Virus record (IMG/VR): IMGVR_UViG_3300030108_004301
Coordinates: 1-58,368 of that record
Origin: a virus
Lineage: Duplodnaviria; Caudoviricetes
Direction: 5' to 3' (one strand)
Length of the DNA stretch: 58,368 nucleotides
A program made the translations under genes and the position numbers. Below are positions 796 to 57,616 of the stretch, one piece after another. The notes under the pieces were generated by a model. It saw only the letters and a list, made by a program, of their open reading frames with translations. It was not told the origin of the DNA and ran no database searches. How positions within the stretch are numbered: the first letter of the stretch is position 1; the number at the start of each line of letters is the position of its first letter.

Positions 796-1203
796 TTGAA
801 ACCTGAATCTAAATTGTGGCAACAGTTAAAAAAAGGGACACAGGATATGGGAGTGTTTTGGACACGCATTGAGTCGTGGTCTAGTCCTGGTGTCCCAGAT
901 GTTCACGGTATCAAAAATGGTGTTAGCTTTTGGGTTGAACTTAAGATCTCCAACTTAAAAACACTTAAATCCATTGGACTCAGCCCACATCAAAAATCGT
1001 GGCAATACAAATATTCTCAACAGTCAGGGAATATCTTTAACCTTGTCAGCCATCCTTCGTCCCGAACCTTAAAAATATTTGGTGGTTCGCGATCCCTGGA
1101 ACTTAACGATCAAAAAAGATCCTTGGTTCCTGATCTGGAGGTTCCGTTTCCTGTTGATTGGAAGATCGTTCTTGATCATATTATATCTCACTCTGGTTCT
1201 TAA
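796..1203 (+). CDS. VRR-NUC / Holliday-junction-resolvase-like PD-(D/E)XK nuclease
   Basis: Motifs E..LW, RIES...GVPD, FWVELK and LSPHQ..W, typical of phage VRR-NUC nucleases. Confidence 0.8.
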   Translation: MKPESKLWQQLKKGTQDMGVFWTRIESWSSPGVPDVHGIKNGVSFWVELKISNLKTLKSIGLSPHQKSWQYKYSQQSGNIFNLVSHPSSRTLKIFGGSRSLELNDQKRSLVPDLEVPFPVDWKIVLDHIISHSGS

Positions 1204-1266
1204 TGTGTCGTGCGATAAAAAAAGACTTGCCAATCAAGTTTGATCAAATTTGATCGGTGCCGATCG
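1064..1266. repeat. GATC/GTTC-dense motif cluster I
   Basis: 9 GATC (1091, 1108, 1118, 1132, 1164, 1174, 1242, 1252, 1262) and 7 GTTC/GAAC in about 200 bp. Confidence 0.85.
1250..1266. repeat. 17-bp direct repeat copy 1 (TTGATCGGTGCCGATCG), containing palindrome GATCGG-TG-CCGATC
   Basis: Exact copy at 1790-1806. Confidence 0.95.
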
Positions 1267-1698: not shown

Positions 1699-1806
1699 GA
1701 TCCTCGGTTCTCAGGTTCCGAGGTTCTCGGTTCTTGACTGGGGGATCATAATAGATCTTTGATGTTCTGGTTCTCATAAGAGATCTTTATTGATCGGTGC
1801 CGATCG
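1699..1806. repeat. GATC/GGTTC-dense motif cluster II, ending in 17-bp repeat copy 2 (1790-1806)
   Basis: 6 GATC (1699, 1744, 1754, 1782, 1792, 1802) and 6 GTTC (1707, 1715, 1723, 1730, 1764, 1770). Also a CCTCGG...CCGAGG inverted repeat at 1702-1723. Confidence 0.9.
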
Positions 1807-2056
1807 CAGTCGGTAAAAACGGAATAAAAAATTATGGTCATAACAAATTATTACTTTAATATTTTTAATATGTTTATGTTTATTTTAATTTACTGTATTT
1901 GCCTTTATATACTGTATAAACTGTATAACTAATTTTTAGGCTTGTAAGTAATTGTTTTTATTGTGTTTTTTACAAAACCGTACCATTTACAAAAAACACC
2001 ACCAAAAAACCAAAAAATAATTTCTAGCTAAACCATTGGTTTTATTGCCTTTTTAC

Positions 2057-2123
2057 ATTGTTATAAAAATACTGCTTATTGTTATAAAAATAAATGGTAT
2101 AATTAATTATGCCAATAGGCATA
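2057..2123 (+). promoter_or_regulatory. extended -10 promoter (TGgTATAAT 2095-2103) with upstream 15-bp direct repeat and downstream palindrome
   Basis: ATTGTTATAAAAATA at 2057 and 2078 (21-bp period). TATGCC-AATA-GGCATA at 2108-2123. Confidence 0.65.
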
Positions 2124-2153
2124 TTAATATTAACAAAAATAAGGTAAAAACAA

Positions 2154-2639
2154 ATGTTAAAAACTTTACAAAAAAATAAGGCAGTAAGTTTTAAACAAGT
2201 TATTTTAGTTAGCAACCATATAGGCAAAACAACTGCTTATAAACCTTTTACAACTGCAAGCGTAAAACAGTTTGTAAACGCAAATGGTGGCGGTAGTTAT
2301 AATAATATTACTGTTACGCCTTGCAATAATGTAAACCTAAAAAATACACCACCAATTAGTTTTGGTTATAATGGTGGTAAAGGCACTAAGCATAAAAACT
2401 TTGGTGGCACTAGGGCTTTAATACTAAATAGCTTTTTATTTGGTGTTACTGCAAACCATGCACCCGCTTTAAATGGTAATGGCAACTATAATTTAGGTGC
2501 AATACTTAACGCATTAAAGGTGCATAAAGTTAGCCCTACTTTGTGGGGTTGTGTGTTTTTGCTAAATGGTGGCACTAGCCCTAGCAATAACGCTTATGGC
2601 ACTAGCTTTATTAAGTTAGTAGCTAACCAAACTAAATAA
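2154..2639 (+). CDS. Asp/Glu-free basic hypothetical protein, paralogue of 56419..56850
   Basis: 161-aa ORF with its own promoter, AAGGT RBS and terminator. Aligns by eye with the 56419 protein (QFV...GG, P..NV.L.N..P..FGY.G, G.RA.I.N..L.G, GG.SPS....T..IKLV). Confidence 0.85.
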   Translation: MLKTLQKNKAVSFKQVILVSNHIGKTTAYKPFTTASVKQFVNANGGGSYNNITVTPCNNVNLKNTPPISFGYNGGKGTKHKNFGGTRALILNSFLFGVTANHAPALNGNGNYNLGAILNALKVHKVSPTLWGCVFLLNGGTSPSNNAYGTSFIKLVANQTK

Positions 2640-2658
2640 CTTTTTACTTACTGCCTAT

Positions 2659-2698
2659 AGCCCTAAGTACTTTTAAAAAGGTACTTAGGGCTTTTTTA
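2659..2698 (+). terminator. intrinsic terminator
   Basis: AGCCCTAAGTAC / GTACTTAGGGCT 12-bp stem followed by a T-run. Confidence 0.85.
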
Positions 2699-3006
2699 TT
2701 GGGCTTGTTTTATTTTGCTTTTTTGCACCCCCCTAGAGAGCTTTGCATTACACAAGGCGTCAGCGTAATGCAAGTTTTGGACGATTCTTTGGATATGAAA
2801 AAAATATCATAGACCGTACCCCCTTTACTGTTTGTTTTGATAATAGGTTCATTGCCCTTGAAAAATTTTCGATATATAAATAAAGTATGAATGAAACCCA
2901 ACAACAGCTGATTTTTATTTTAATTGTTTTTGAAATATGTTTACATTTGGCAGAAATATGGTTTGATTTTATGCAGCACATTCATTTTTACGGATTTGAG
3001 TGGTAA

Positions 3007-4494
3007 ATGACTCATTTAAAAATGAACAATAATTTAGATTTTATACCTGAAGAAAAATTAAAGAACTATGCTAATTTGATTAGTAAGGCAAAGGAGCTGA
3101 CTGATGCAGAAAAGGCTCGTTTGGATTTTATGCAGTTTACAAAAATGGTTTGGCCAGAGTTTATAGAAGGTAGCCACCATAAGATAATGGCGAAAAAATT
3201 TAATTTACTGGCAGAGGGTAAGTTAAAACGATTGATAGTGAATATGCCACCACGACACACGAAATCTGAATTTTCAAGTTTTTTACTTCCAGCGTGGCTG
3301 ATAGGTAAAAAGCCGAATTTAAAAATTATGCAGACTACACACACAGCTGAGTTAGCCTTTAGGTTTGGTAGAAAAACAAGAAACTTGATGAACTCACAGG
3401 AATACAAAAAAGTATTTAACAAAGTAAATTTGAGAGTGGACAGCCAAGCGGCAGGACGATGGGAAACAGAAAACGGTGGAGAGTATTTTGCGGCAGGAGT
3501 AGGAGGAGCGGTGACTGGTCGAGGTGCGGATTTATTAATAGTGGATGACCCTCATAGTGAGCAAGATGCACTGAGCCCAACTGCTTTAGAAAATGCTTAT
3601 GAATGGTATACATCGGGACCCCGACAGCGTTTGCAACCTGGAGGCAGCATAGTAATAGTAATGACACGCTGGGCAGAAAACGATTTAACAGGGAAGTTGA
3701 TACGCCAACAAGCTAGAGATATATTAGCCGATAAGTGGGAAGTAATAGAATTCCCCGCTTTGATGCCCGAAAGTGATGAGCCGATGTGGCCTGAGTTTTG
3801 GAATAAGAAAGATTTATTAAATGTAAAAGGAAGTTTATCAGTAGCCAAGTGGGAAGCCCAATGGCAACAAAACCCGACAAGTGAAGCGTCGGCACTTTTA
3901 AAAAGAGATTGGTGGAAGCGGTGGAAGAAAAAAGAAATGCCACCTTTGGAATATATAATGCAAAGTTATGATACAGCGTTTAATAAAAACAATAATGCTG
4001 ACTATAGTGCGATTACAACTTGGGGAGTATTTTACCCAGAAGAAACAGGAACACCGAATATAATTTTATGTGATGCCCGAAAAGATCGATGGGAGTTTCC
4101 TGAATTACGACGAGTAGCGTTAGAAGAATATAAGTATTGGGATCCTGAATGCGTATTAATTGAAGCAAAAGCGAGTGGTATGCCATTGACCCAAGAACTA
4201 CGGAATATGGGAATCCCAGTCATGAACTACAGCCCAAGTAGAGGGAATGATAAATTTGCTCGTGTAAATTCAGTTGCACCAATAGTCGAAAGTGGGTTAG
4301 TATGGGTTCCAGATACTCGTTGGGGTGAAGAAGTAATAGAAGAGTGTGCTGCTTTCCCTGCTGGAGAACACGATGATTATGTTGATACAGTTACACAGGC
4401 GTTACGAAGATTTAGAGAAGGCGGCTTTATATCTCACCCTGATGATTACGAAGAAGATCGTATTGGTATCAACAGAGAAAGGATTTATTACTGA
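3007..4494 (+). CDS. terL: terminase large subunit
   Basis: Walker A-like MPPRHTKS, Walker B LLIVDDP, VMTRW motif, and C-terminal RNase H-like nuclease (SYDTA, HDDYVD). Confidence 0.96.
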   Translation: MTHLKMNNNLDFIPEEKLKNYANLISKAKELTDAEKARLDFMQFTKMVWPEFIEGSHHKIMAKKFNLLAEGKLKRLIVNMPPRHTKSEFSSFLLPAWLIGKKPNLKIMQTTHTAELAFRFGRKTRNLMNSQEYKKVFNKVNLRVDSQAAGRWETENGGEYFAAGVGGAVTGRGADLLIVDDPHSEQDALSPTALENAYEWYTSGPRQRLQPGGSIVIVMTRWAENDLTGKLIRQQARDILADKWEVIEFPALMPESDEPMWPEFWNKKDLLNVKGSLSVAKWEAQWQQNPTSEASALLKRDWWKRWKKKEMPPLEYIMQSYDTAFNKNNNADYSAITTWGVFYPEETGTPNIILCDARKDRWEFPELRRVALEEYKYWDPECVLIEAKASGMPLTQELRNMGIPVMNYSPSRGNDKFARVNSVAPIVESGLVWVPDTRWGEEVIEECAAFPAGEHDDYVDTVTQALRRFREGGFISHPDDYEEDRIGINRERIYY

Positions 4495-39837: not shown

Positions 39838-41379
39838 ATGAACTCTAATAATTTAACAAAAACAATTGCAGAAAACTTGTTTTCAATTTTTCAGGGAAGT
39901 GATATTGCTCATGGAACATTTGTCACTAAAGGAACCTCCATAAATGGAAAAAAACAAGGTGTAGCTAAAGTTATTAGAGAACCAACAACCGTTGAGATGT
40001 GGGAAAAGCATCTCAATGGTGAGGTTGGTATAGGTATTATACCCATAAAAAGCGATAATAATTGTTTTTGGGGTGCAATAGATATTGATGAATATGATAT
40101 AAAACACAAAAAACTGTGTGAAAACCTTTTGAAAAATAAAATTCCTGCAGTAGTGGGAAGAACAAAAAGTGGTGGAGCTCACATATGGGTGTTTGTTTCT
40201 ACCGCAATCCCAGCAGAAGATATGCAAAGAAAAATGACAGAACTATCTGCTGCTCTTGGTTTTTCTGGTAGTGAAATATTTCCTAAACAAACAACTATAT
40301 TGTTAGAAAGAGGGGATACAGGAAACTTTTTAAATATGCCATACTTTTCTGGTTCTAAAAGCACACGATATGCTTTTGATGATAATGGCAACGCTGTTTC
40401 TGTAGAAGAATTTATAAAACTAGCCAAACAAAAAACGATAACACCTAACAAGTTTTTTAGTTTAGATTTTAGTTTTGGTGTTCCCAAAGAAGTTTTAAAA
40501 GATGGACCTCCGTGTTTACAGCATCTTTGTAAACAGGGTTTTGCTGAGGGATCACGAAACAATGCTCTTTTTAATTTAGGTGTTTATGCAAGATTACTAG
40601 ACCCAGATAATTGGGAAAACTTAATACAAAGATACAATATGGATTACTTAGATCCTCCTCTAAGCCACAGTGAGGTAGGAGCAGTAATAAGACAGTTAAA
40701 GAAAAAAGATTATTTTTACAAATGTGACGATCAACCGATAAAACCTTTTTGTGATAAAGAAGTATGTAAGACTAGAAAATATGGTGTAGGACCAAATGGT
40801 ATAGGTAATGATTTAAGTTCTCTAACTAAAATAGATGGTGACCCACCCATATGGATTTTAAATGTAGATGGGTTGAGAGTTGAGCTTTCTACTAATGGTT
40901 TAACTTCTCAAACACAGTTTCAAAAAGAGTGTGTTTCACAAATAAATAAATACCCACAAAGCGTCAACCAAAGGGCTTGGCAAGTAAGAATACAAACACT
41001 ATTAGATAATCTGACGATAGTCGAGGTTCCGCCTGATGCTACTATAAAAGGTGAGTTTGAAGATTTACTTCATGCGTTTGCCTGTGAGCGAGCAAAAGGA
41101 GAAGAAAAAGAAGATATTTTACAGGGAGTGGCAGTCTGGTATAATGATAAAGTATTTTTCCTAGTAAAAGATTTAAAAAAGCATTTGACCGTGAACGATT
41201 TTAACCATTACACTTCCAACAAAATAACACTAAGATTACAAGATTTAAAATCAGAAAAAACATTTTGGAGGGTAAGAGGTAAAGGTGTTCATGTTTGGTC
41301 ACTTCCTCAGAAATATTTTAAACCACAAGAAGAGAACATACCATTACCTGATCTTCCTCAACCGAAAGATGTCATATGA
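39838..41379 (+). CDS. AEP-superfamily primase with PriCT-like domain
   Basis: IDID, TKSGGAH, GN..NMPY, PPCL and GSRNNALF motifs. Confidence 0.8.
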   Translation: MNSNNLTKTIAENLFSIFQGSDIAHGTFVTKGTSINGKKQGVAKVIREPTTVEMWEKHLNGEVGIGIIPIKSDNNCFWGAIDIDEYDIKHKKLCENLLKNKIPAVVGRTKSGGAHIWVFVSTAIPAEDMQRKMTELSAALGFSGSEIFPKQTTILLERGDTGNFLNMPYFSGSKSTRYAFDDNGNAVSVEEFIKLAKQKTITPNKFFSLDFSFGVPKEVLKDGPPCLQHLCKQGFAEGSRNNALFNLGVYARLLDPDNWENLIQRYNMDYLDPPLSHSEVGAVIRQLKKKDYFYKCDDQPIKPFCDKEVCKTRKYGVGPNGIGNDLSSLTKIDGDPPIWILNVDGLRVELSTNGLTSQTQFQKECVSQINKYPQSVNQRAWQVRIQTLLDNLTIVEVPPDATIKGEFEDLLHAFACERAKGEEKEDILQGVAVWYNDKVFFLVKDLKKHLTVNDFNHYTSNKITLRLQDLKSEKTFWRVRGKGVHVWSLPQKYFKPQEENIPLPDLPQPKDVI

Positions 41380-42017
41380 ATAATGTTTTTTTCTCTAAAA
41401 AATACCAAGCGTATGTAAGGGAAAACACTTTGGATGAGTATATTTTTGGAGAAATATCATCTGCCTATAAAGACCTTGAAATAAAAAAAGGTGATGTAGT
41501 TTTAGATTTAGGAGCAAACATAGGTGCTTTCGCAAAACAAGCAGCAGAAAAGGACGCAATCGTACATTGTTACGAGCCTGAACCTAGTAACTTTACTCTT
41601 TTACAGTTAAACAGCCCGAACACTTATAATCATAAGAAGGCGGTTGTAGGTAAACAAAATGGAAAGATAAAACTATTTATAAATTCTAAAAGAAACAAGG
41701 GTATCCATATGATAAGGCCAGTGAATGGAAGAGAAAGCATAGAAGTAGAAACTGTTTCTTTTGGTGACCTTATAAATGAAATAAAACCAAACAAAATAAA
41801 AATAGATGTAGAGGGAGCAGAGTATGATTTTTTACCTTATGAGTTTCCCAGTTTTGTAGAAAGACTTGTTATGGAAATACATTTTCAGTACGACCCTTCT
41901 TGGAGAAAACTAGGTAGGGAAGTTCATGAAAATATGATCAAGCAAGGTTTTTCTTCTTTAAAAGAATTTAAAGACACAGGGAAAAACTGGCATATTATAG
42001 GAGCGTATGTAAGATAA
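41376..42017 (+). CDS. FkbM-family SAM-dependent methyltransferase
   Basis: VLDLGANIG.F, YEP.P.N, KIDVEGAEY and MEIH motifs. Confidence 0.88.
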   Translation: MNNVFFSKKYQAYVRENTLDEYIFGEISSAYKDLEIKKGDVVLDLGANIGAFAKQAAEKDAIVHCYEPEPSNFTLLQLNSPNTYNHKKAVVGKQNGKIKLFINSKRNKGIHMIRPVNGRESIEVETVSFGDLINEIKPNKIKIDVEGAEYDFLPYEFPSFVERLVMEIHFQYDPSWRKLGREVHENMIKQGFSSLKEFKDTGKNWHIIGAYVR

Positions 42018-44785: not shown

Positions 44786-45709
44786 TTGAACACAACTCCC
44801 CAAACATTATTTCAACAAGATAAAGTAGAAAGTTTTTATAATTGGATTAATGAACGCCACAAAATATATCAAAAAAGATTACAAGGTTATCCTCCTCCGT
44901 GGACTGATGACCCAATACTACAGAAATATAAATTCACAAACCCATTCAGAGAAAACGATCGTGTTACTGTATGGATGAGAAACAACTGGACAACACCAAA
45001 CGACAACAAAAAGAATGCTGCTGAAATTATATTTAATTGCTGTTTGTTTAGAATGATAGGCACTATAGAATTTGCTGAAGATCACGGTTGGGTAAAAAAT
45101 AATTGGAATCCAGAAAAAACTAAAAAAATAATAGAAGATAGGTTAAGTAAAAAACAAAGAACATTTACTGGAGCATATATAATTACGAATCAGGGTATTT
45201 CTGCACCTAAAAAAGATGTAGTTGTAGATGAGTTCCTTGTACCGATTTGGAAAAACAAAAATGCAATTGCTGAAAATGCAGCTCATTATCAAACATTACA
45301 AAAAACCCACGAAAAATTAGGTGAATACAAAGGGTGGGGAGGCGGTGGTTTTATGGCTTATGAAGTTGTTTCTGACCTTAATTATACCTCTGTTCTAAAC
45401 AAAGCAGCGGATCGTTACACTTGGGCAAATGCAGGACCAGGAGCAATACGAGGAATAAATAGAATAGAAGGTGCTAACTTAAAACGATCTATGAAACCAG
45501 AAATATCTAATCAAAAAATGCAAAAAATTTTAGATTTAAAGTATGTTTATACTGCCGAACACATTGATGTTGCTTCTGTCGATATGAGAACAATAGAACA
45601 CAGTTTGTGTGAGTGGGATAAATATGAGAGAGTAAGACTCAATCAAGGCAGACCAAGAAGTAAGTTTTCTTGGAGCCATAACAAAATAGATAGTGGAGGA
45701 GTAAGATGA
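44786..45709 (+). CDS. aGPT-Pplase1 / 5-hmdU DNA kinase helical-domain-like DNA base-modification protein
   Basis: ERH.IY..R..G...PWT.DPIL..YKFTN.FRE.DR, F.AYEV..DL, GPGA.RG and IEH.LCE.DKY motifs; TTG start. Confidence 0.82.
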   Translation: MNTTPQTLFQQDKVESFYNWINERHKIYQKRLQGYPPPWTDDPILQKYKFTNPFRENDRVTVWMRNNWTTPNDNKKNAAEIIFNCCLFRMIGTIEFAEDHGWVKNNWNPEKTKKIIEDRLSKKQRTFTGAYIITNQGISAPKKDVVVDEFLVPIWKNKNAIAENAAHYQTLQKTHEKLGEYKGWGGGGFMAYEVVSDLNYTSVLNKAADRYTWANAGPGAIRGINRIEGANLKRSMKPEISNQKMQKILDLKYVYTAEHIDVASVDMRTIEHSLCEWDKYERVRLNQGRPRSKFSWSHNKIDSGGVR

Positions 45710-47010
45710 AATTTCTAATTACTTTTTTTCAGATACAAGATTATGGTGGAATAATAAACCATACCGAATATTTAACAGCAGGACTTAAGGAACTAGGACA
45801 TACTGTTGATATAGCTATGCTTGTTCCAAAGCACGGAGTTGTAAGAACAAGTTTACCAAAAGATATAGAAGATAAAACTAAGTATTCAATAAACCCAAAA
45901 GGAACTAACCTTTATCACAATCAAGCTAGAGGTTGGTATGGTATGACCAAAATACCTTATTTAAATGAGTACAGAAAAAATAAGTTTAAGGAAGATTGTT
46001 CTAATTATGACGCAGTCATTTGGCAAATTCCTGTTCCTACACTCAGTAAAGAAAACAAAGGTGTAAAAGATTGGTATGACTTATATAGCACAGGAACTAA
46101 AAACATAGCTGTCATACACGATGGTAACCTACCAAACTTATATCCTCATTTAGCGAGTGTTCAAAATAAGTTTTATTCTATGATTTGTGTTCATGAATCA
46201 GCATTTGAATCTGCTGAAAACATACAAATACCTAGAATGTTAGTTGTAAACCCTCATGACATACAAAAACAAGGACAGTATGGACAAAAGAAGTTTGAAG
46301 AAAAAGATGGTTTAGTTGCCATACAAATATTCAAAGGGTGGAAAAGAGTAGACTCTTTAGTACGAGCTATACCTTTTATGAACAATAAAGAACAAAAAAT
46401 TGTTGGAGGAGCAGGAATAGAATATAGATATATGACTAGCAAAGAAAAGTGCAAACCAAAATACTTTGAATCAAATGGTTCCAGAATATGGGATAATGCC
46501 TTAGCAAGTGGAATGGAATATGTTGGTGTTGTTGATAATGAAAAAGTATTTAATTATCTAAACAATGCAAAAGTACACATAGACCCAAGTTGGTCAAAAA
46601 AATATCACGCCTTTGGTTCTCATTTTAATAGAACAACAATTGAAGCTATGATATCAGGTTGCTTACCTATCGCTACAGATTTAGGTATGGGTAATTCTGA
46701 TATATTTAAAAAGAATAAAAACTATGTAGAAATATCACACGAAGCTACACCAAAACAATTTGCAGAAATTGTTGACGATTGTTTACAAAATAAAAGTAAG
46801 TGGCAAACGATTACAGATAATAATTGTGAAAAGCTACAAGAGTTCGACATGAAAAAAGTAGCAGATGAATATGTTGAAATTATTAAAGGCGGCTATGATA
46901 CGAAAAAAATAAAGAATGGACTAAACAACAATGAAATTATTACAAAATGCAACGATAATTTAGAATTTTTTAATTTTGGATTCCGTATGGAGCTCCCTCG
47001 ATCTGATTGA
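45706..47010 (+). CDS. GT-B (GT4-like) glycosyltransferase
   Basis: N-terminal GG...H...L..GL...GH.V, K..KRVD.LVRA and C-terminal DPS....EAM..G..PIA motifs. Confidence 0.82.
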   Translation: MKFLITFFQIQDYGGIINHTEYLTAGLKELGHTVDIAMLVPKHGVVRTSLPKDIEDKTKYSINPKGTNLYHNQARGWYGMTKIPYLNEYRKNKFKEDCSNYDAVIWQIPVPTLSKENKGVKDWYDLYSTGTKNIAVIHDGNLPNLYPHLASVQNKFYSMICVHESAFESAENIQIPRMLVVNPHDIQKQGQYGQKKFEEKDGLVAIQIFKGWKRVDSLVRAIPFMNNKEQKIVGGAGIEYRYMTSKEKCKPKYFESNGSRIWDNALASGMEYVGVVDNEKVFNYLNNAKVHIDPSWSKKYHAFGSHFNRTTIEAMISGCLPIATDLGMGNSDIFKKNKNYVEISHEATPKQFAEIVDDCLQNKSKWQTITDNNCEKLQEFDMKKVADEYVEIIKGGYDTKKIKNGLNNNEIITKCNDNLEFFNFGFRMELPRSD

Positions 47011-47066
47011 GGGTGTTCCGCATACAAAACTACCTTGCTAATAATAATGAAAACACAGGAGGAAAT

Positions 47067-48062
47067 ATGGAACATATAGCGGCTAGGAATGTAAGTGACG
47101 GCCTTTACCTTACAAAATTAAGTCTTTTAGAAGTAGGGAAGAAAGAAAACACGAGAAACGGTTGGGTTTTAGAATTTCCCACTCCTTTTTGCGTGACATA
47201 TACTCATCCAACAGAAAGAGTTTTATTTTATCCAGAAAGAGATGCTAACCCTTTTTTTCATTTGATGGAATCTTTGTGGATGTTGGCAGGAAGAAATGAT
47301 GTTGAGTGGATTTCTAAGTATAATAAAAGGATTTCTGATTACAGTGATAATGGAAGAACATTTCATGGAGCATATGGACATCGGTGGCGTAATCATTTTA
47401 GGGGAGGACCAAAAGAGTTTAAAGATCAGTTAGACCAAGTTATGATTAGATTACATAAATTTCCAAATGATCGTAGGGCTGTTGTTTCTATGTGGGATCC
47501 TAATGTTGATTTAGTAATGCACAATGATGGAAAGGATTATCCTTGTAACACTCAAATATTTTTTTCTAAAAGAGGGAAAGTTTTAAATATGACAGTGATA
47601 AATAGAAGTAATGATATTGTGTGGGGATTATTTGGTGCTAATGCAGTTCATATGTCTATGTTACAAGAATATATGGCAGCTAGAACAGAAAGCGAAGTTG
47701 GAACATATATTCACTTTAGTAACAATGCTCACGCTTACTTGGATACATTAGAAAAAATAAAAGATATGCAACCAGATTATGAATCTTATTTAATTATTGG
47801 GGACGATGCTTCACAATACCACTCACAACCGTTAGTAGATAACTGGTTAACTTTTGATGAAGAGTTAGCATTATGGTTTAGGAATGAGGAGGTAAATGTC
47901 TTTGAAAATAAATTTCTTTCTCTTACAGCTTTTAGAGTAAGGGAGGGTTGGCACTTTTGGAAACAAAAGAATATAAACAAAGCTATCGAAATATGTAAAA
48001 CGATAGAAGATCGTGCTTGGCGTAAAGCGTGTGTGGAGTGGCTTGAAAGGAGGAACAAATGA
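47067..48062 (+). CDS. thymidylate-synthase-superfamily enzyme, probable dUMP hydroxymethylase
   Basis: RDANPFF, GAYG.RWR, DRRAV..MWD, catalytic YPCN, RSND..WG..GAN (Asn indicates dUMP specificity) and NNAHAY. AGGAGG precedes ATG 47067. Confidence 0.85.
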   Translation: MEHIAARNVSDGLYLTKLSLLEVGKKENTRNGWVLEFPTPFCVTYTHPTERVLFYPERDANPFFHLMESLWMLAGRNDVEWISKYNKRISDYSDNGRTFHGAYGHRWRNHFRGGPKEFKDQLDQVMIRLHKFPNDRRAVVSMWDPNVDLVMHNDGKDYPCNTQIFFSKRGKVLNMTVINRSNDIVWGLFGANAVHMSMLQEYMAARTESEVGTYIHFSNNAHAYLDTLEKIKDMQPDYESYLIIGDDASQYHSQPLVDNWLTFDEELALWFRNEEVNVFENKFLSLTAFRVREGWHFWKQKNINKAIEICKTIEDRAWRKACVEWLERRNK

Positions 48063-48460
48063 AAAGCAGAATACTTCAGGAAGTTGAAAAACTAGCACAA
48101 GAAGATGCCTTTAAGTTAGAAGAGGCTGAAAAATCTTATGGTGATAGTTGGAAAAAAAGGGGAGGCGTTGGTGCATTCATGATGTTAGCTAGAAAATGGG
48201 ATAGAATAGCTCAGCAAAACAGCATGAAAAACACAGGATACGATATATTTAAGGCAATAAAGCAAGACGGTTATTCTGAAACAGGATTGTTAGATGATAT
48301 CCGTGACTTAAGAAGGTATTTACTTTTAGTAGAGGCTGAAATGTTTTTAAGAAGAGAGGGTGATCATCCTGTTAAAAGACATTTAAACACACAGTTCAGT
48401 CCTTATGAAAATGAAGAGGGTATGATTAGTGATAGTTGTGAGTGGAGAACAGATGAATGA
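48059..48460 (+). CDS. nucleotide-modification-associated (Nmad/MazG-like all-helical) protein
   Basis: SYG.SWKKRGG.GAFMMLARKWDR...D.I.DLRRYLLLVE motif, directly after the TS homologue. Confidence 0.65.
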   Translation: MKSRILQEVEKLAQEDAFKLEEAEKSYGDSWKKRGGVGAFMMLARKWDRIAQQNSMKNTGYDIFKAIKQDGYSETGLLDDIRDLRRYLLLVEAEMFLRREGDHPVKRHLNTQFSPYENEEGMISDSCEWRTDE

Positions 48461-48617: not shown

Positions 48618-50454
48618 ATACGAATGGGTAATGCCAGATGAGTTTCCTGACTTATCAGGTTTTAAAGAAATTTCTATAGACTTAGAAACTTGTGATAAGA
48701 ATCTACTTACCAATGGTTCTGGGTGGGCTAGAAAAGACGGCTATGTTATAGGTATCGCTGTTGCTACAGAAGGCTTCTGTAAATATTTTCCTATACAACA
48801 TGAGATAGGACCTAACCTTGACAAAAATGTCACTCTTAACTGGTTACGAGAAGTTGTTTCCTTTCCTGATAAAAAGTATATTTTCCACAATGCTCCGTAT
48901 GATGTAGGGTGGTTGATCGCAGAGGGAGTGTTCGTAAAGGGAGAAATAATAGATACTATGGTTGTTGCTCCTTTGCTTGATGAAAATAGGTTCAGTTATT
49001 CTTTAAACGCTTTAGCCAGAGATTATCTACAAGATAGAAAATCAGAAGTTGGTTTAAGAGAGGCAGCTGATGCTTTTGGAGTAAATGCAAAAAGTGAAAT
49101 GTATAAACTTCCCGCTCACTATGTCGGTGAGTATGCAGAACACGATGCTAGTCTCACACTTAAACTTTGGAATCATTTTAAAACACTAATTATAAAAGAA
49201 GATATAAAAGAAATATTTGAACTAGAAACTAAAGTTTTAAAAACTATAATTCCTATGAGAAAACAAGGTGTTCGGGTTGATTTAGAAAAAGCAGAAAAAA
49301 TTAAAAAACTTTTTGAAGAAAAAGAAAATACTTTACTTACAGAGATTAAAAATGAATCTGGTGTTTTAGTAGAAATATGGGCGGCAGATAGTGTTGCAAA
49401 AGTTTTTGATTCTTTAAAACTTTCCTACGGAAGAACAGAAAAGACACAAGCACCGTCGTTCACAAAAGGTTTCTTAGCAAACCACAAACACCCGATTGCT
49501 AGAAAAATAGTACAAGCTAGAGAATATAATAAGGCAAGAACTACTTTTATCGACACAATACTAAAACATCAAACAAAGGGTAGAATACACGCTGAGTTAC
49601 ACCCTCTTAGAAGTGATCAAGGTGGAACAGTCACTGGAAGGTTTAGTTACAGTAATCCTAACTTACAGCAAGTGCCTATAAGGAATAATGAACTAGGACC
49701 AATGATAAGAAGTTTATTTCTGCCTGAAGAAAAATGTAGTTGGGGTATCTTTGATTATTCTAGCCAAGAGCCTAGGATTGTTGTTCATTACGCAAAACTT
49801 ATGAAGTTCCAAAAAGCAGAAGAATTTGCTGAACAATACCAAAAAGATTCAAGAACTGACTTCCATCAAATGGCGGCAGATATTGTAGGTGTGCCAAGAA
49901 AACAAGCTAAAAACATTAATTTGGGGTTGTTCTATGGCATGGGAACTAAGAAACTAGCAAACCAGTTGGACTTACCATACGAAGATGCCAAAGAACTTTT
50001 TGCTGAGTATCACACTAAACTACCTTTTGTAAAAGAACTTGCAGAATATTCTAGTAATAGGGCTTCTCATAAAGGTTTAATAAGAACTCTGTTAGGGAGA
50101 AAGTGTAGGTTCGATAAGTGGGAACCTAATAAGTACGGTATATCAAAACCTTTGAATTACCAAGAAGCGTTCGCTGAACATGGACCTTCTATTCGCAGAG
50201 CCTTTACATATAAGGCTCTAAATAAATTAATTCAGGGAAGTGCAGCTGATCAAACAAAAGCAGCGATGGTCGCACTTTATGAAGAAGGTATTTTACCAAT
50301 GATACAAGTACACGATGAACTAGACATAAGCATAGAAGATGAGAGCCAAATGAAAAAGGTAATAAGTATTATGGAAGAATGTGTTGATTTAGAGGTTCCT
50401 AGCGTTGTTGACACTGAACTAGGACCAAATTGGGGTGAGTGCGTTGAAAAATAA
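48589..50454 (+). CDS. polA: family A DNA polymerase with 3'-5' exonuclease
   Basis: DLET, HNA.YD, TGRFS...PNLQQ, motif A DYSSQEPR, motif B KNINLGLFYG and motif C VHDE. Confidence 0.95.
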   Translation: MGQIPLLQPEYEWVMPDEFPDLSGFKEISIDLETCDKNLLTNGSGWARKDGYVIGIAVATEGFCKYFPIQHEIGPNLDKNVTLNWLREVVSFPDKKYIFHNAPYDVGWLIAEGVFVKGEIIDTMVVAPLLDENRFSYSLNALARDYLQDRKSEVGLREAADAFGVNAKSEMYKLPAHYVGEYAEHDASLTLKLWNHFKTLIIKEDIKEIFELETKVLKTIIPMRKQGVRVDLEKAEKIKKLFEEKENTLLTEIKNESGVLVEIWAADSVAKVFDSLKLSYGRTEKTQAPSFTKGFLANHKHPIARKIVQAREYNKARTTFIDTILKHQTKGRIHAELHPLRSDQGGTVTGRFSYSNPNLQQVPIRNNELGPMIRSLFLPEEKCSWGIFDYSSQEPRIVVHYAKLMKFQKAEEFAEQYQKDSRTDFHQMAADIVGVPRKQAKNINLGLFYGMGTKKLANQLDLPYEDAKELFAEYHTKLPFVKELAEYSSNRASHKGLIRTLLGRKCRFDKWEPNKYGISKPLNYQEAFAEHGPSIRRAFTYKALNKLIQGSAADQTKAAMVALYEEGILPMIQVHDELDISIEDESQMKKVISIMEECVDLEVPSVVDTELGPNWGECVEK

Positions 50455-50971
50455 ACTTGAGTTTTATGAACTGATACAAAAAAGATTAAAAGGTGGTGAT
50501 GTTTTAAGGTATCATACTAGACCTGAAGTTGCTGATAAACAAGATGTTGCTGCTCACAGTTGGCGTTCTTTGGTTCTGCTTACCACACTCTGGCCAGACG
50601 CAAGTAAAAACAGTATCTTATTTGTTCTTTATCATGATGTAGCTGAGCTAGAAATAGGAGATGTTCCCGCCACGACAAAATGGAAATACAAAGATTTAGC
50701 AAAAACCTTAACGGTAATAGAAAACGACTATGAGGATTTGTTGTGCCTTCCAGTGAAATATGTTGATCTTTCAGAAGAGGAACAACAAAGAGTAAAGATA
50801 GTAGATATCCTTGAATTAGTTTTTCATTGTCATAAACAAATGCAAAAAGGTAATTCTCTTGCGAGCGATATATTTTACAGAGGCATTGATTTTTTGTATT
50901 CAAACTTTAAATACAGTAAGGATTATGTTTTGATAGAAACTGTATTAGAAAAAATGAAAGGAGAGCCATGA
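50435..50971 (+). CDS. HD-domain 5'-deoxynucleotidase (YfbR-like)
   Basis: RYH, V..HS, YHDVAE...GD.P...K and K.VD.LE motifs. Confidence 0.82.
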   Translation: MSALKNKLEFYELIQKRLKGGDVLRYHTRPEVADKQDVAAHSWRSLVLLTTLWPDASKNSILFVLYHDVAELEIGDVPATTKWKYKDLAKTLTVIENDYEDLLCLPVKYVDLSEEEQQRVKIVDILELVFHCHKQMQKGNSLASDIFYRGIDFLYSNFKYSKDYVLIETVLEKMKGEP

Positions 50972-52973: not shown

Positions 52974-53441
52974 ATGAACATCTTTATACTGCACCCCGAC
53001 CAATCGTTGTGTGCTAAGTATCATTGCGACAAACATATCGTAAAGATGCCTTTGGAAACAACACAGATGTTGTGTTCCGTGCATTGGCGATACAACTCAA
53101 CTGCTCCCTACCTAAAAGTTCACACCAAACATCCGTGTACCTTGTGGGCTGGAGAAACAGTTGATAACTACAAATGGCTATGGGAGTTTGGTATTGAATT
53201 ATGTAAAGAGTACACTTATCGTTACGAAAGAATCCACGCTTGTGAAAAGGTTCTTGCAATTATAAAGGATCCGCCTGTAGAATTAACCAAGAGGGGAACA
53301 ACTATTTTCCCTCAAGCTATGCCAGAGGAATATAAGCATAGAGATCCTGTGGTGGCATACAGGGAATATTATAAATATGAAAAAAGGAGATTTGCCAAAT
53401 GGAAAAAAAGAAAGACACCACCGTTCATGCAACAAATGTAG
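52974..53441 (+). CDS. pyrimidine-dimer DNA glycosylase (DenV)-like protein
   Basis: MNIF.L...A..HCDKH.VKM.LE..QML, HPC..W, NY.WL, EY..RY...H and QAMP..Y motifs. Confidence 0.75.
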   Translation: MNIFILHPDQSLCAKYHCDKHIVKMPLETTQMLCSVHWRYNSTAPYLKVHTKHPCTLWAGETVDNYKWLWEFGIELCKEYTYRYERIHACEKVLAIIKDPPVELTKRGTTIFPQAMPEEYKHRDPVVAYREYYKYEKRRFAKWKKRKTPPFMQQM

Positions 53442-56886: not shown

Positions 56887-57067
56887 AAGTTTCAAGTTTG
56901 CTATATAGTAGTAAAATGAAATAAGTGTAAAATCAAATTTTAACTTTCTCCAATATACAATATATAGCTATATCCGATATATTTTGAAAACTATTTCAGC
57001 CACGCGAAAACAATCGACTTTGAATTTAAATTTGCATCTTTTCAAAAACTCTACTATTATACAAAGT

Positions 57068-57616
57068 ATGGCGATCGCTAAACAAACACATAAGAATAAA
57101 CTTGAGGTAGTAGCTAATCCCCGCAGGGAAAAACAAATTACTCCCAAACAAGAAGAGTTCGCAAGATTGTATGTCTGCGAGGACATTACACAAACTGAAG
57201 CAGCGATAAAAGCTGGATACTCTAAAAATTCAGCTCATGTGATTGCTTCGCAACTTCTCGATGGGCGATCGTTTCCTCATGTAATCAACCGAATACGAGA
57301 ACTGAAAATAGAATTATCTCGTAAATATGAAGTTTCCTTTGAAGGTCATGTAAAAAAGTTGGCTGAGATTAGGGATTCTGCGATCGGTTCTGGTAATTTC
57401 GCAGCGGCTGTCGCTGCTGAAAAATCTCGTGGTCAGGCGGCAGGATTGTACATCGATCGTAAAGAAATACTACACGGAAAAATTGACCAGATGAGTAGAG
57501 AAGAAGTTATGAAGGAAATACAAAGATTACAACAAGAATATCCTGCTTTGGCAACCTTTAGTGCCGACAATGTTGTAATAGAAGGTGATTCTAAAGAGTT
57601 GAAAACAAAGGACTAA
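57068..57616 (+). CDS. terS: terminase small subunit
   Basis: ITPKQEEFARLYV...TQTEAAIKAGYS...A...AS.LL HTH signature. ATG 57068 is in frame with track ORF 56984. Confidence 0.85.
   Translation: MAIAKQTHKNKLEVVANPRREKQITPKQEEFARLYVCEDITQTEAAIKAGYSKNSAHVIASQLLDGRSFPHVINRIRELKIELSRKYEVSFEGHVKKLAEIRDSAIGSGNFAAAVAAEKSRGQAAGLYIDRKEILHGKIDQMSREEVMKEIQRLQQEYPALATFSADNVVIEGDSKELKTKD

Follow-up and report, generated by a model that had tools for sequence, protein, structure and literature searches.

Why would a phage clear one dinucleotide from a single gene and its control regions, on both strands? The question is raised by a 58,368-bp record of the Caudoviricetes in IMG/VR (IMGVR_UViG_3300030108_004301). 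This stretch, referred to below as the window, is the whole virus record and has a CheckV completeness estimate of 99%. Its large terminase subunit (TerL) shares 61% identity with the TerL of Pelagibacter phage HTVC027P and 58% with the one of HTVC023P, which makes the window phage an uncultured relative of HTVC023P-type pelagiphages. Between the genes for the small (terS) and large (terL) terminase subunits sits an island, at 1840-2735, that contains no GA and a single TC and holds a gene for a 161-amino-acid (161-aa) protein without aspartate or glutamate. The depletion is confirmed, and several lines of sequence comparison point to purifying selection on double-stranded DNA. As to its cause, we give a probability of about 40% to the reading that the island is a transcription unit kept free of the phage's own thymidine hypermodification.

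The GA/TC-free island

A direct dinucleotide count of the 896 bp at 1840-2735 gives no GA and one TC, at position 2023. Local base composition predicts 44.9 GA and 48.0 TC for the same interval, and the window-wide dinucleotide frequencies predict 60.1 and 32.7, respectively. When the island was shuffled as mononucleotides (n=2000), the sum of GA and TC averaged 93.1 and never fell below 72, against the one observed. Of all GA/TC-free gaps in the 58,368 bp, the two longest lie here (713 bp at 2023-2736 and 185 bp at 1838-2023), and the next longest in the window measures 69 bp. A GA-free, single-TC island of about 900 bp had been claimed in a first-pass annotation of this DNA, and the counts, gaps and shuffles all bear the claim out. 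The same annotation asked for a comparison across all dinucleotides, which leaves GA/TC as the only depleted pair: over the whole window, no gap in any of the nine remaining pairs is longer than about 1.4 times the maximum expected for that pair. Within the island CA/TG is not depleted, and AA and TT are raised (142 each, against 109-127 and 89-115 expected). Outside the island the poorest 500-bp segment still holds 33 GA/TC, against a median of 52; elsewhere there is not even a mild depletion.

The depletion is not a by-product of an unusual protein, because 5000 synonymous redraws of the 161-aa open reading frame (ORF) at genome codon usage contained 29.2 GA/TC on average and at least 15, and none (0/5000) reached zero. 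The non-coding flanks are purged as well, with 1 GA/TC against 25.6 expected in the 314 bp upstream (1840-2153) and 0 against 11.8 in the 96 bp downstream (2640-2735). Nor is the island a quirk of assembly, because Logan contigs from four runs of four studies span it with few differences; among the variants listed, all 8 that fall inside 1840-2735 introduce no GA/TC. The GA/TC depletion of 1840-2735 is thereby confirmed as real.

The elements of the unit, most of them already described in the first-pass annotation, are as follows.

1840..2735, both strands alike (0 GA and 1 TC on the + strand): GA/TC-free island, from dinucleotide counts
2095..2103, + strand: candidate promoter, an extended -10-like TGgTATAAT, read from the sequence
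2141..2145, + strand: ribosome-binding site AAGGT, without GA, 8 nt 5' of the ATG, read from the sequence
2154..2639, + strand: 161-aa ORF, the terL-proximal ('recoded') paralog without Asp or Glu, from the ORF list and family alignment
2659..2698, + strand: predicted intrinsic terminator with a 15-bp stem, a 4-nt loop (2659-2692) and a T-run, from a terminator scan
2728..2739, + strand: right boundary, a C-run followed by TAGAGA, with the first GA past the island at 2736
3007..4494, + strand: large terminase gene, 371 bp past the last codon of the island protein

The coding details given earlier hold throughout: every serine codon is AGY (AGT 3, AGC 7), Asp and Glu are absent and the stop codon is TAA. 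The signals are likewise in place, with AAGGT before the ATG, the extended -10-like element upstream and the intrinsic terminator inside the island. A consensus promoter scan, which demands a -35 hexamer, does not list TGgTATAAT at 2095-2103; the islands of relatives contain clearer predicted promoters, of the form TTTACA/TTGTAA-N17-TATATT/TATAAT. Ribosome-binding sites in those islands are of the AGG or GGGG type, and GGAG and GAGG are never used. In most lineages the right edge of the island is marked by a C-run followed by GAGA or GAC.

Paralogs, relatives and lability

The first-pass annotation had proposed a search for the same island upstream of terL in related phages, and it is found clade-wide. 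The survey covered 80 IMG/VR loci with TerL relatives (77-100% identity), out of more than 599 that exist, and each locus was classed by its longest stretch with at most two GA/TC within up to 2.5 kb upstream of terL. Such a stretch reaches at least 500 bp at 37 of the 80 loci and 300-499 bp at a further 12, while 17 have no island (less than 300 bp, with at least 1 kb of upstream sequence) and 14 have too little upstream sequence to be classed. In most relatives there is no GA/TC at all in the terL-proximal gene copy, in the roughly 90-300 bp upstream of it and in the roughly 75-200 bp downstream, and this state holds across alleles that are merely 16-30% identical at the protein level. Each of the five complete genomes with an island, the window (G000) and G001-G004, has exactly one, for GA/TC only (5/5); that of G004 is interrupted by a few sites, its longest gaps being 274, 174 and 162 bp. 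The complete genome G006 contains no island anywhere. For G001 the scripts used 60,000 of 60,037 bp.

The island protein belongs to a family of small basic proteins with two paralogs, one proximal to terL (212-775 bp upstream of it) and one distal (about 1-3 kb upstream). The island proteins of relatives measure 137-225 aa, are 16-80% identical to that of the window, share its motifs and have no Asp or Glu. Distal copies, collected by profile search, carry 6-14 GA+TC per 100 bp and 8-15 acidic residues. The window holds the strict proximal copy only, the distal paralog being absent. Copy counts and the family tree were based on family hits of at least 120 aa. By GA+TC per 100 bp, the proximal copies comprise 32 strict (0), 21 low (0.2-3.7) and 13 normal (5-9) ones, and all 42 distal copies are of normal composition. 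Clustered at 50% identity, a library of 1.84 billion representatives contains 116 clusters of the family. Acidic residues are entirely absent from 34 of the cluster representatives, and about 25 others contain one Asp only.

An AlphaFold2 model of the island protein (pLDDT 83, pTM 0.80) returned nothing at E<=0.001 in Foldseek searches of PDB and BFVD. Pfam and PHROG scans gave no match for it or for the normal paralogs, and neither tblastn of the protein against 50,697 phage records nor a nucleotide search of phage records with the island region found a match. Two leads on the protein were set aside. Designed armadillo repeats, the sole return of a profile search of PDB sequences, were treated as spurious, with no stretch passing alone, and a DUF3489 lead from the ESM Atlas (0.78) fell below a usable score, the other returns being unnamed viral clusters only.

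Island state is labile. It differs between loci with identical TerL (L033 and L034; L057, L059 and L060 against L058) and between L062 and L063, whose TerL sequences are near-identical. L057 and L058 are about 100% identical on both flanks and about 92% identical in the island, where the differences are mostly synonymous. The L057 protein is without Asp and Glu although its gene holds 12 GA/TC, and by this comparison the locus looks like a recently relaxed island. L001 has a TerL 100% identical to that of the window and an island 91% identical. In the family tree, distal and proximal copies separate, the strict lineages stand on long branches and the proximal state needs at least 12 changes. 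Judged from these alignments and the tree, the proximal locus is fast-evolving and exchanged between lineages, and the constraint on it can be switched off. The two paralogs, the clade-wide occurrence and the evolutionary lability were all missed in the earlier annotation.

The contig of G004 offers a separate observation at this locus. Its ends (1-1351 and 58586-60123) overlap by about 1.35 kb and are 93% identical within the island and 99% identical next to it. On this pattern, the assembly evidently went round the circle and took up the island allele of a second strain.

Level of selection and candidate explanations

The substitutions at relaxed loci bear on how the island is maintained. 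Relaxed alleles and their nearest strict relatives differ at 42 GA/TC sites, of which 9 are of the TC/TT or GA/AA type, 7 are TC/CC and 6 are TC/GC. Among hits of at least 125 aa, with identical sequences collapsed, the Asp columns shared by distal and normal proximal copies hold Asn, Ala, Ser, Gln, Pro or Lys in strict copies, Asn being the commonest replacement at several of the conserved columns. The low share of TC/TT and GA/AA sites, together with the replacement of conserved Asp, therefore favors selection over mutation bias.

The edges of the purge add the level at which this selection acts. In L063 the purge begins 41 bp 5' of a predicted sigma-70-like promoter (10/12) and ends about 120 bp past a predicted terminator; in L051 it begins 81 bp 5' of the predicted -35 and ends about 100 bp past the predicted terminator. 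That of the window begins about 255 bp upstream of the candidate -10. At the right edge, GA/TC density jumps from 0 to the genome mean of 10.0 per 100 bp within the next 150 bp (n=27). Both complements purged, flanks included, mixed routes of substitution and repeated loss together point to strong and lasting purifying selection on double-stranded DNA that keeps TC and GA out of the unit, as delimited by predicted promoters and terminators. The first-pass annotation had proposed dinucleotide-level selection on the DNA itself, and this idea is sustained by the loss of both complements, in all reading frames, in non-coding flanks and in alleles 16-30% identical. The pattern does not correspond to avoidance of defined restriction sites of 4-8 bp, as every GA/TC is missing and GA/TC-free palindromes are present. 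In 31 pooled strict islands (22,256 bp), AGCT, CTAG and GTAC occur at or above expectation; under a first-order Markov model the z values are -7.6 for GGCC, -4.8 for CCGG, -4.3 for AATT and +5.2 for CTAG.

A source of dinucleotide specificity is suggested by a set of genes in the same genome. A hypermodification cassette had been placed at 44786-48460, and homology matches agree.

44786..48460, + strand: thymidine-hypermodification cassette, from homology matches
44786-45709, + strand: DNA kinase domain for 5-hydroxymethyl-dU (5-hmdU) (PF18723, E 7.3e-54)
45706-47010, + strand: group-1 glycosyltransferase
47007-48062, + strand: thymidylate-synthase (TS) homologue (PF00303, E 1.6e-24)
48059-48460, + strand: 133-aa ORF without assigned function, at the cassette end
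50435-50971: YfbR-like 5'-deoxynucleotidase near the cassette

By homology, these comprise the genes of a 5-HMUDK-type (5-hmdU DNA kinase) system, namely the kinase, a TS-like dUMP hydroxymethylase and a downstream transferase. Homologues of the kinase in phage records carry the annotation aGPT-Pplase1. The kinase is present in the window, in each of the 10 relatives tested, irrespective of island state, and in another 6 records (6/6) that are at least 90% complete and carry the island-protein family. Counted over near-complete genomes with the family, it occurs in 13/13. Two fragmentary records (59% and 46% complete) gave no kinase match, which proves nothing given their incompleteness. The four nearest named phages (HTVC027P, 023Pt_psg01, HTVC023P and DSL-LC04) have no kinase, no family member and no island within 4 kb of terL. 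An island kept without the cassette, which the first-pass annotation had named as fatal to its leading model, was looked for among relatives and no such case was found.

Under the hypermodification reading, the phage would replace T by 5-hmdU, and the 5-hmdU DNA kinase route would then hypermodify a sequence-defined subset of these bases, in this clade T followed by C. A context of TC only is proposed because GA/TC is purged from the island while CA/TG is not depleted. The island would be the sole stretch of virion DNA without a hypermodified base. Host RNA polymerase could accordingly transcribe the unit from fully modified DNA without loss of rate, upon entry or else very late in infection, and enzymes that sense or cut hypermodified DNA would not see it. 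Modification would still apply to the ordinary paralog, as to every other gene. Tentatively, and with the odds somewhat against it, the gene may thus be 'epigenetically invisible', its freedom from TC giving full-rate expression and proof against nucleases, as an early or late switch or as a lifeboat for counter-defence.

We regard this reading as the most economical. Among the systems of these genomes, hypermodification alone has a specificity documented at the level of dinucleotides, TC included. In 2018 its motifs for thymidine were described as 'not yet known' (PMC5889632), and the conversion of 5-hmdU is stated elsewhere to occur in sequence-specific contexts (PMC8989533). In phages M6, ViI and phiW-14, resistant restriction sites are reported to be mostly TG/TC, which the authors attribute to the 5-hmdU kinase (PMC6449724). 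For phage SH-Ab 15599, TG sites are reported as almost fully occupied and TC sites as less so, with the modified base at ~14% (PMC13458397); in the window 6041 of 37,504 T (16.1%) stand in TC context, near that value. Transcription by E. coli RNA polymerase from a 5-HMUDK-treated template with 5-hydroxymethyluracil (5hmU) is given as 37% of that from natural DNA and 10% of that from the 5hmU template, and bulkier groups are said to have abolished it (PMC6457204). Host END nucleases are reported to sense diverse hypermodified DNA, and phages to carry inhibitors of them (bioRxiv 10.1101/2025.03.31.646159). An account of HTVC023P-type clades notes the cassette, and the word 'dinucleotide' is absent from its text (PMC9599517).

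Several observations weigh against hypermodification as the cause. The complete genome G006 and the fragments G007, G008 and G010 have the same kinase, TS homologue and 133-aa ORF, yet a normal proximal copy, so the purge is not a necessity of having the cassette. State differs at identical TerL, an observation more easily reconciled with an external agent that varies than with an internal one that is fixed. When the ORFs of G000, G001, G002 and G006 were compared by tblastn with 14 genomes, no phage gene consistently tracked island state; the few 'minus-only' ORFs are common only to the closely related G006, G008 and G010. With no other region depleted, transcription of all other genes must pass over TC sites. 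Family and cassette co-occur in a contrast of one clade with its outgroup, which counts as a single event. None of five other kinase-bearing phages (PhiJL001, YuA, PaMx11, CN1 and RHph_I65; 0/5) has a dinucleotide-free island or a family member. The TC context, finally, we infer from the island itself and by analogy with the published TG/TC preferences. The leading model of the first-pass annotation, a TC context with this unit left unmodified, thus keeps the support of the 13/13 co-occurrence and the published TG/TC specificity, and is weakened by the normal copies beside the cassette and the five other kinase phages. A 1351-bp TA-free stretch in PhiJL001 was dismissed as an island, TA being rare in that 62% GC genome.

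Repeats beside the paralog genes bear on two of the alternatives. The window has 7 matches to GATC-N6-GATC, starting at 1108, 1164, 1242, 1252, 1744, 1782 and 1792, and these form two arrays.

1744..1811: GATC array with 10-bp spacing, directly left of the island, from GATC-N6-GATC matches
1108..1265: second GATC-N6-GATC array, where relatives hold the upstream region of the distal paralog

Arrays also lie next to paralog genes in G001 (57235-57486), where 5 of 6 matches adjoin the island, and in G003 (45825-45885), where all 7 adjoin the island and are consecutive. Candidate roles for these helically phased 10-bp arrays, unique within each genome, are those of an operator, of a pac-like site and of a site sensitive to modification. 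Among + strand hits with at least 450 bp upstream, identical upstream sequences collapsed, arrays precede 17/28 strict, 3/12 low, 1/12 normal and 12/34 distal copies. The flank left of the window's island has 18.7 GA/TC per 100 bp, and left flanks across loci average 12.5 and reach 20.7, where the locus mean is 9.9. Left of the islands of L018 and L027, and of L063-L073, stand runs of (TCA) about 12 times, of (TCAAG) about 4 times and of GAGAGAGA. With TC-rich runs directly left of islands, the target dinucleotide is concentrated just outside them.

The trait is labile: its state changes at least 12 times in the family tree, varies at identical TerL and is tracked by no phage gene. This would be explained by an enzyme of the host or of a competitor that acts at TC/GA; the island would then be a target-free 'lifeboat' gene, plausibly for counter-defence, whose expression could continue during an attack on the remaining genome. 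Candidates for such an enzyme are a DNA ADP-ribosyltransferase, a TC-preferring deaminase and a frequent-cutting or nicking nuclease, and the rapid evolution and swapping of the proximal copy (L057 and L058; L001 and the window) are typical of arms-race genes. We nevertheless consider it unlikely: we know of no defence with a pure 2-bp specificity, damage elsewhere would still kill the phage unless the protein were very fast or kin benefited, and the perfect co-occurrence with the hypermodification cassette would be left unexplained. The repeats suggest a different agent, the basic family proteins themselves, which might bind TC/GA repeats or coat TC-modified DNA, the proximal unit being kept free of sites so that its own product does not bind or silence it. 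Every GATC-N6-GATC match in the window (7/7) sits just upstream either of the island or of the slot of the distal paralog, left flanks are rich in GA/TC with (TCA)n and (TCAAG)n runs, and the proteins are strongly basic; set against this, the arrays are missing upstream of many copies, a 2-bp specificity is unlikely for a DNA-binding protein and no DNA-binding fold was recognized, which makes such self-avoidance improbable.

The position of the island between terS and terL, its size of 600-1000 bp, which resembles the T7 leading segment, and the adjoining phased arrays, which resemble pac sites or the flanks of terminal repeats, would suit a physical genome end or packaging start, that is, first-entering DNA or a terminal repeat that would have to lack the target on mechanical or defence grounds. 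Five contigs (L008, L064, L068, L074 and L080) do start in or beside the island. Such starts fit assembly breaks at a hypervariable locus, as in the G004 ends, and the contig ends of G001, G002, G003 and G006 match over about 77-144 bp in a circular-like manner, with the island at various positions. Relatives without the purge are, moreover, viable. The first-pass annotation had suggested first-entering DNA or the packaging end; no support for this was found, the island of the window lies away from its contig ends, and we regard a genome end as distinctly improbable. Selection on the RNA, by which an mRNA without GA and UC would resist a host or phage endoribonuclease, draws on the approximate match between purge and predicted transcription unit in lineages such as L058. 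It is in our view very improbable, as the purged pair are reverse complements, a chance of 1 in 15 for two independent RNA motifs, and the purge covers DNA predicted not to be transcribed, both in relatives (41-81 bp 5' of the -35 and about 100-120 bp past terminators) and in the roughly 255 bp upstream of the window's candidate -10. Scarcely credible is local mutational exhaustion by a TC-specific cytosine deaminase turning TC to TT and GA to AA. The raised AA and TT of the window's island, the preference for Asn at several Asp columns and the hypervariable locus agree with it; against it stand the substitution spectrum, in which TC/CC and TC/GC are about as common as the 9/42 sites of the required types, the GC-rich islands that exist (L019) and the Asp columns that went to Ala, Ser, Gln or Pro. 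Targeted deaminase hypermutation was rejected on the same spectrum (9/42).

Surroundings, significance and known systems

Other features of the window adjoin the locus or stand apart from it.

56984..57616, + strand: small terminase subunit (phrog_51 E 7.8e-19; PF03592 E 1.5e-13)
796-1203: conserved ORF upstream of the paralogs with weak nuclease/resolvase-like PHROG matches (phrog_2165 E 1e-16; phrog_93)
2728-2990: conserved elements from the island to terL
52974-53441: ORF matching pyrimidine-dimer DNA glycosylase (PF03013, E 2.8e-7; T4 endonuclease V type)
41376-42017: ORF of the FkbM methyltransferase family (PF05050, E 4.7e-11)

The island protein was ruled out as a small terminase subunit, as it has no Pfam or PHROG match and a separate TerS is encoded at 56984-57616. 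The ORF at 796-1203 lies between terS and terL in all relatives. The interval from the island to terL retains in relatives two C-runs, with a hairpin (TTGCATTAC...GTAATGCAA in the window) between them, and a GATAATAGGTTCATTGCCC-like motif, elements that may control the terL operon or act as a signal for packaging. The PF03013 ORF is kept in all compared genomes that cover its region, and the FkbM-family ORF has no homologue in the 13 related genomes compared.

Selection on DNA has gone to an extreme in these phages: the purge has lasted long enough to strip the protein of all acidic residues. It occurs in a large, abundant clade of uncultured marine phages related to the HTVC023P-type pelagiphages. 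If the island marks the context of hypermodification, it would be the first read-out of such a specificity from sequence only, and target-free islands would let this specificity be read directly from uncultured genomes; the modification would also have a cost that phages engineer around. If an external enzyme is responsible instead, a hitherto undescribed DNA-targeting activity with 2-bp specificity would exist in the ocean's most abundant bacteria. The strict, relaxed and normal alleles found naturally in near-identical phages amount to a ready-made experiment.

Local avoidance of enzyme targets is known for restriction sites. We know of no earlier description of a gene from which, control regions included, a bare dinucleotide has been purged completely, and full-text literature searches for dinucleotide-free or modification-free regions in phages returned nothing relevant. 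Clusters of methylation-sensitive GATC are known from Mu mom, with OxyR, and from P1 pac. As in those systems, the phased GATC arrays here directly precede the unit and recur nowhere else in the genome; unlike in them, they are missing in many lineages. No Dam-type methylase was seen among the ORFs scanned, no search having been aimed at methylases.

Messenger RNA without ACA has been engineered to survive MazF, and there too a whole gene is recoded without a very short target while the protein is still encoded. The ACA-less case acts at the RNA level, on a single strand, whereas here both complementary dinucleotides are purged, together with flanks that are apparently untranscribed. Judged by predicted promoters and terminators, the depletion is not confined to the transcript or to the motif of one strand, as it would be in a site-free mRNA.

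The phages M6, ViI, phiW-14 and SH-Ab 15599 resemble the window phage in the PF18723 kinase family and the TS-like hydroxymethylase. A modification-free island has been described for none of them, and the context in the window phage would differ from their TG/TC preferences in being TC only. Leading DNA free of restriction sites is known from the T7 early region before gene 0.3 and from the first-step-transfer DNA of T5, which has no EcoRI sites. In these cases, and as proposed for the window, a local stretch cleared of an enzyme's target holds or precedes a gene that acts before or despite that enzyme. T7 and T5 avoid specific sites of 4-7 bp at a known entering end, whereas the island avoids a bare dinucleotide on both strands around one gene. 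It differs further in that the purge forces a protein without Asp or Glu, and in that close relatives live without it.

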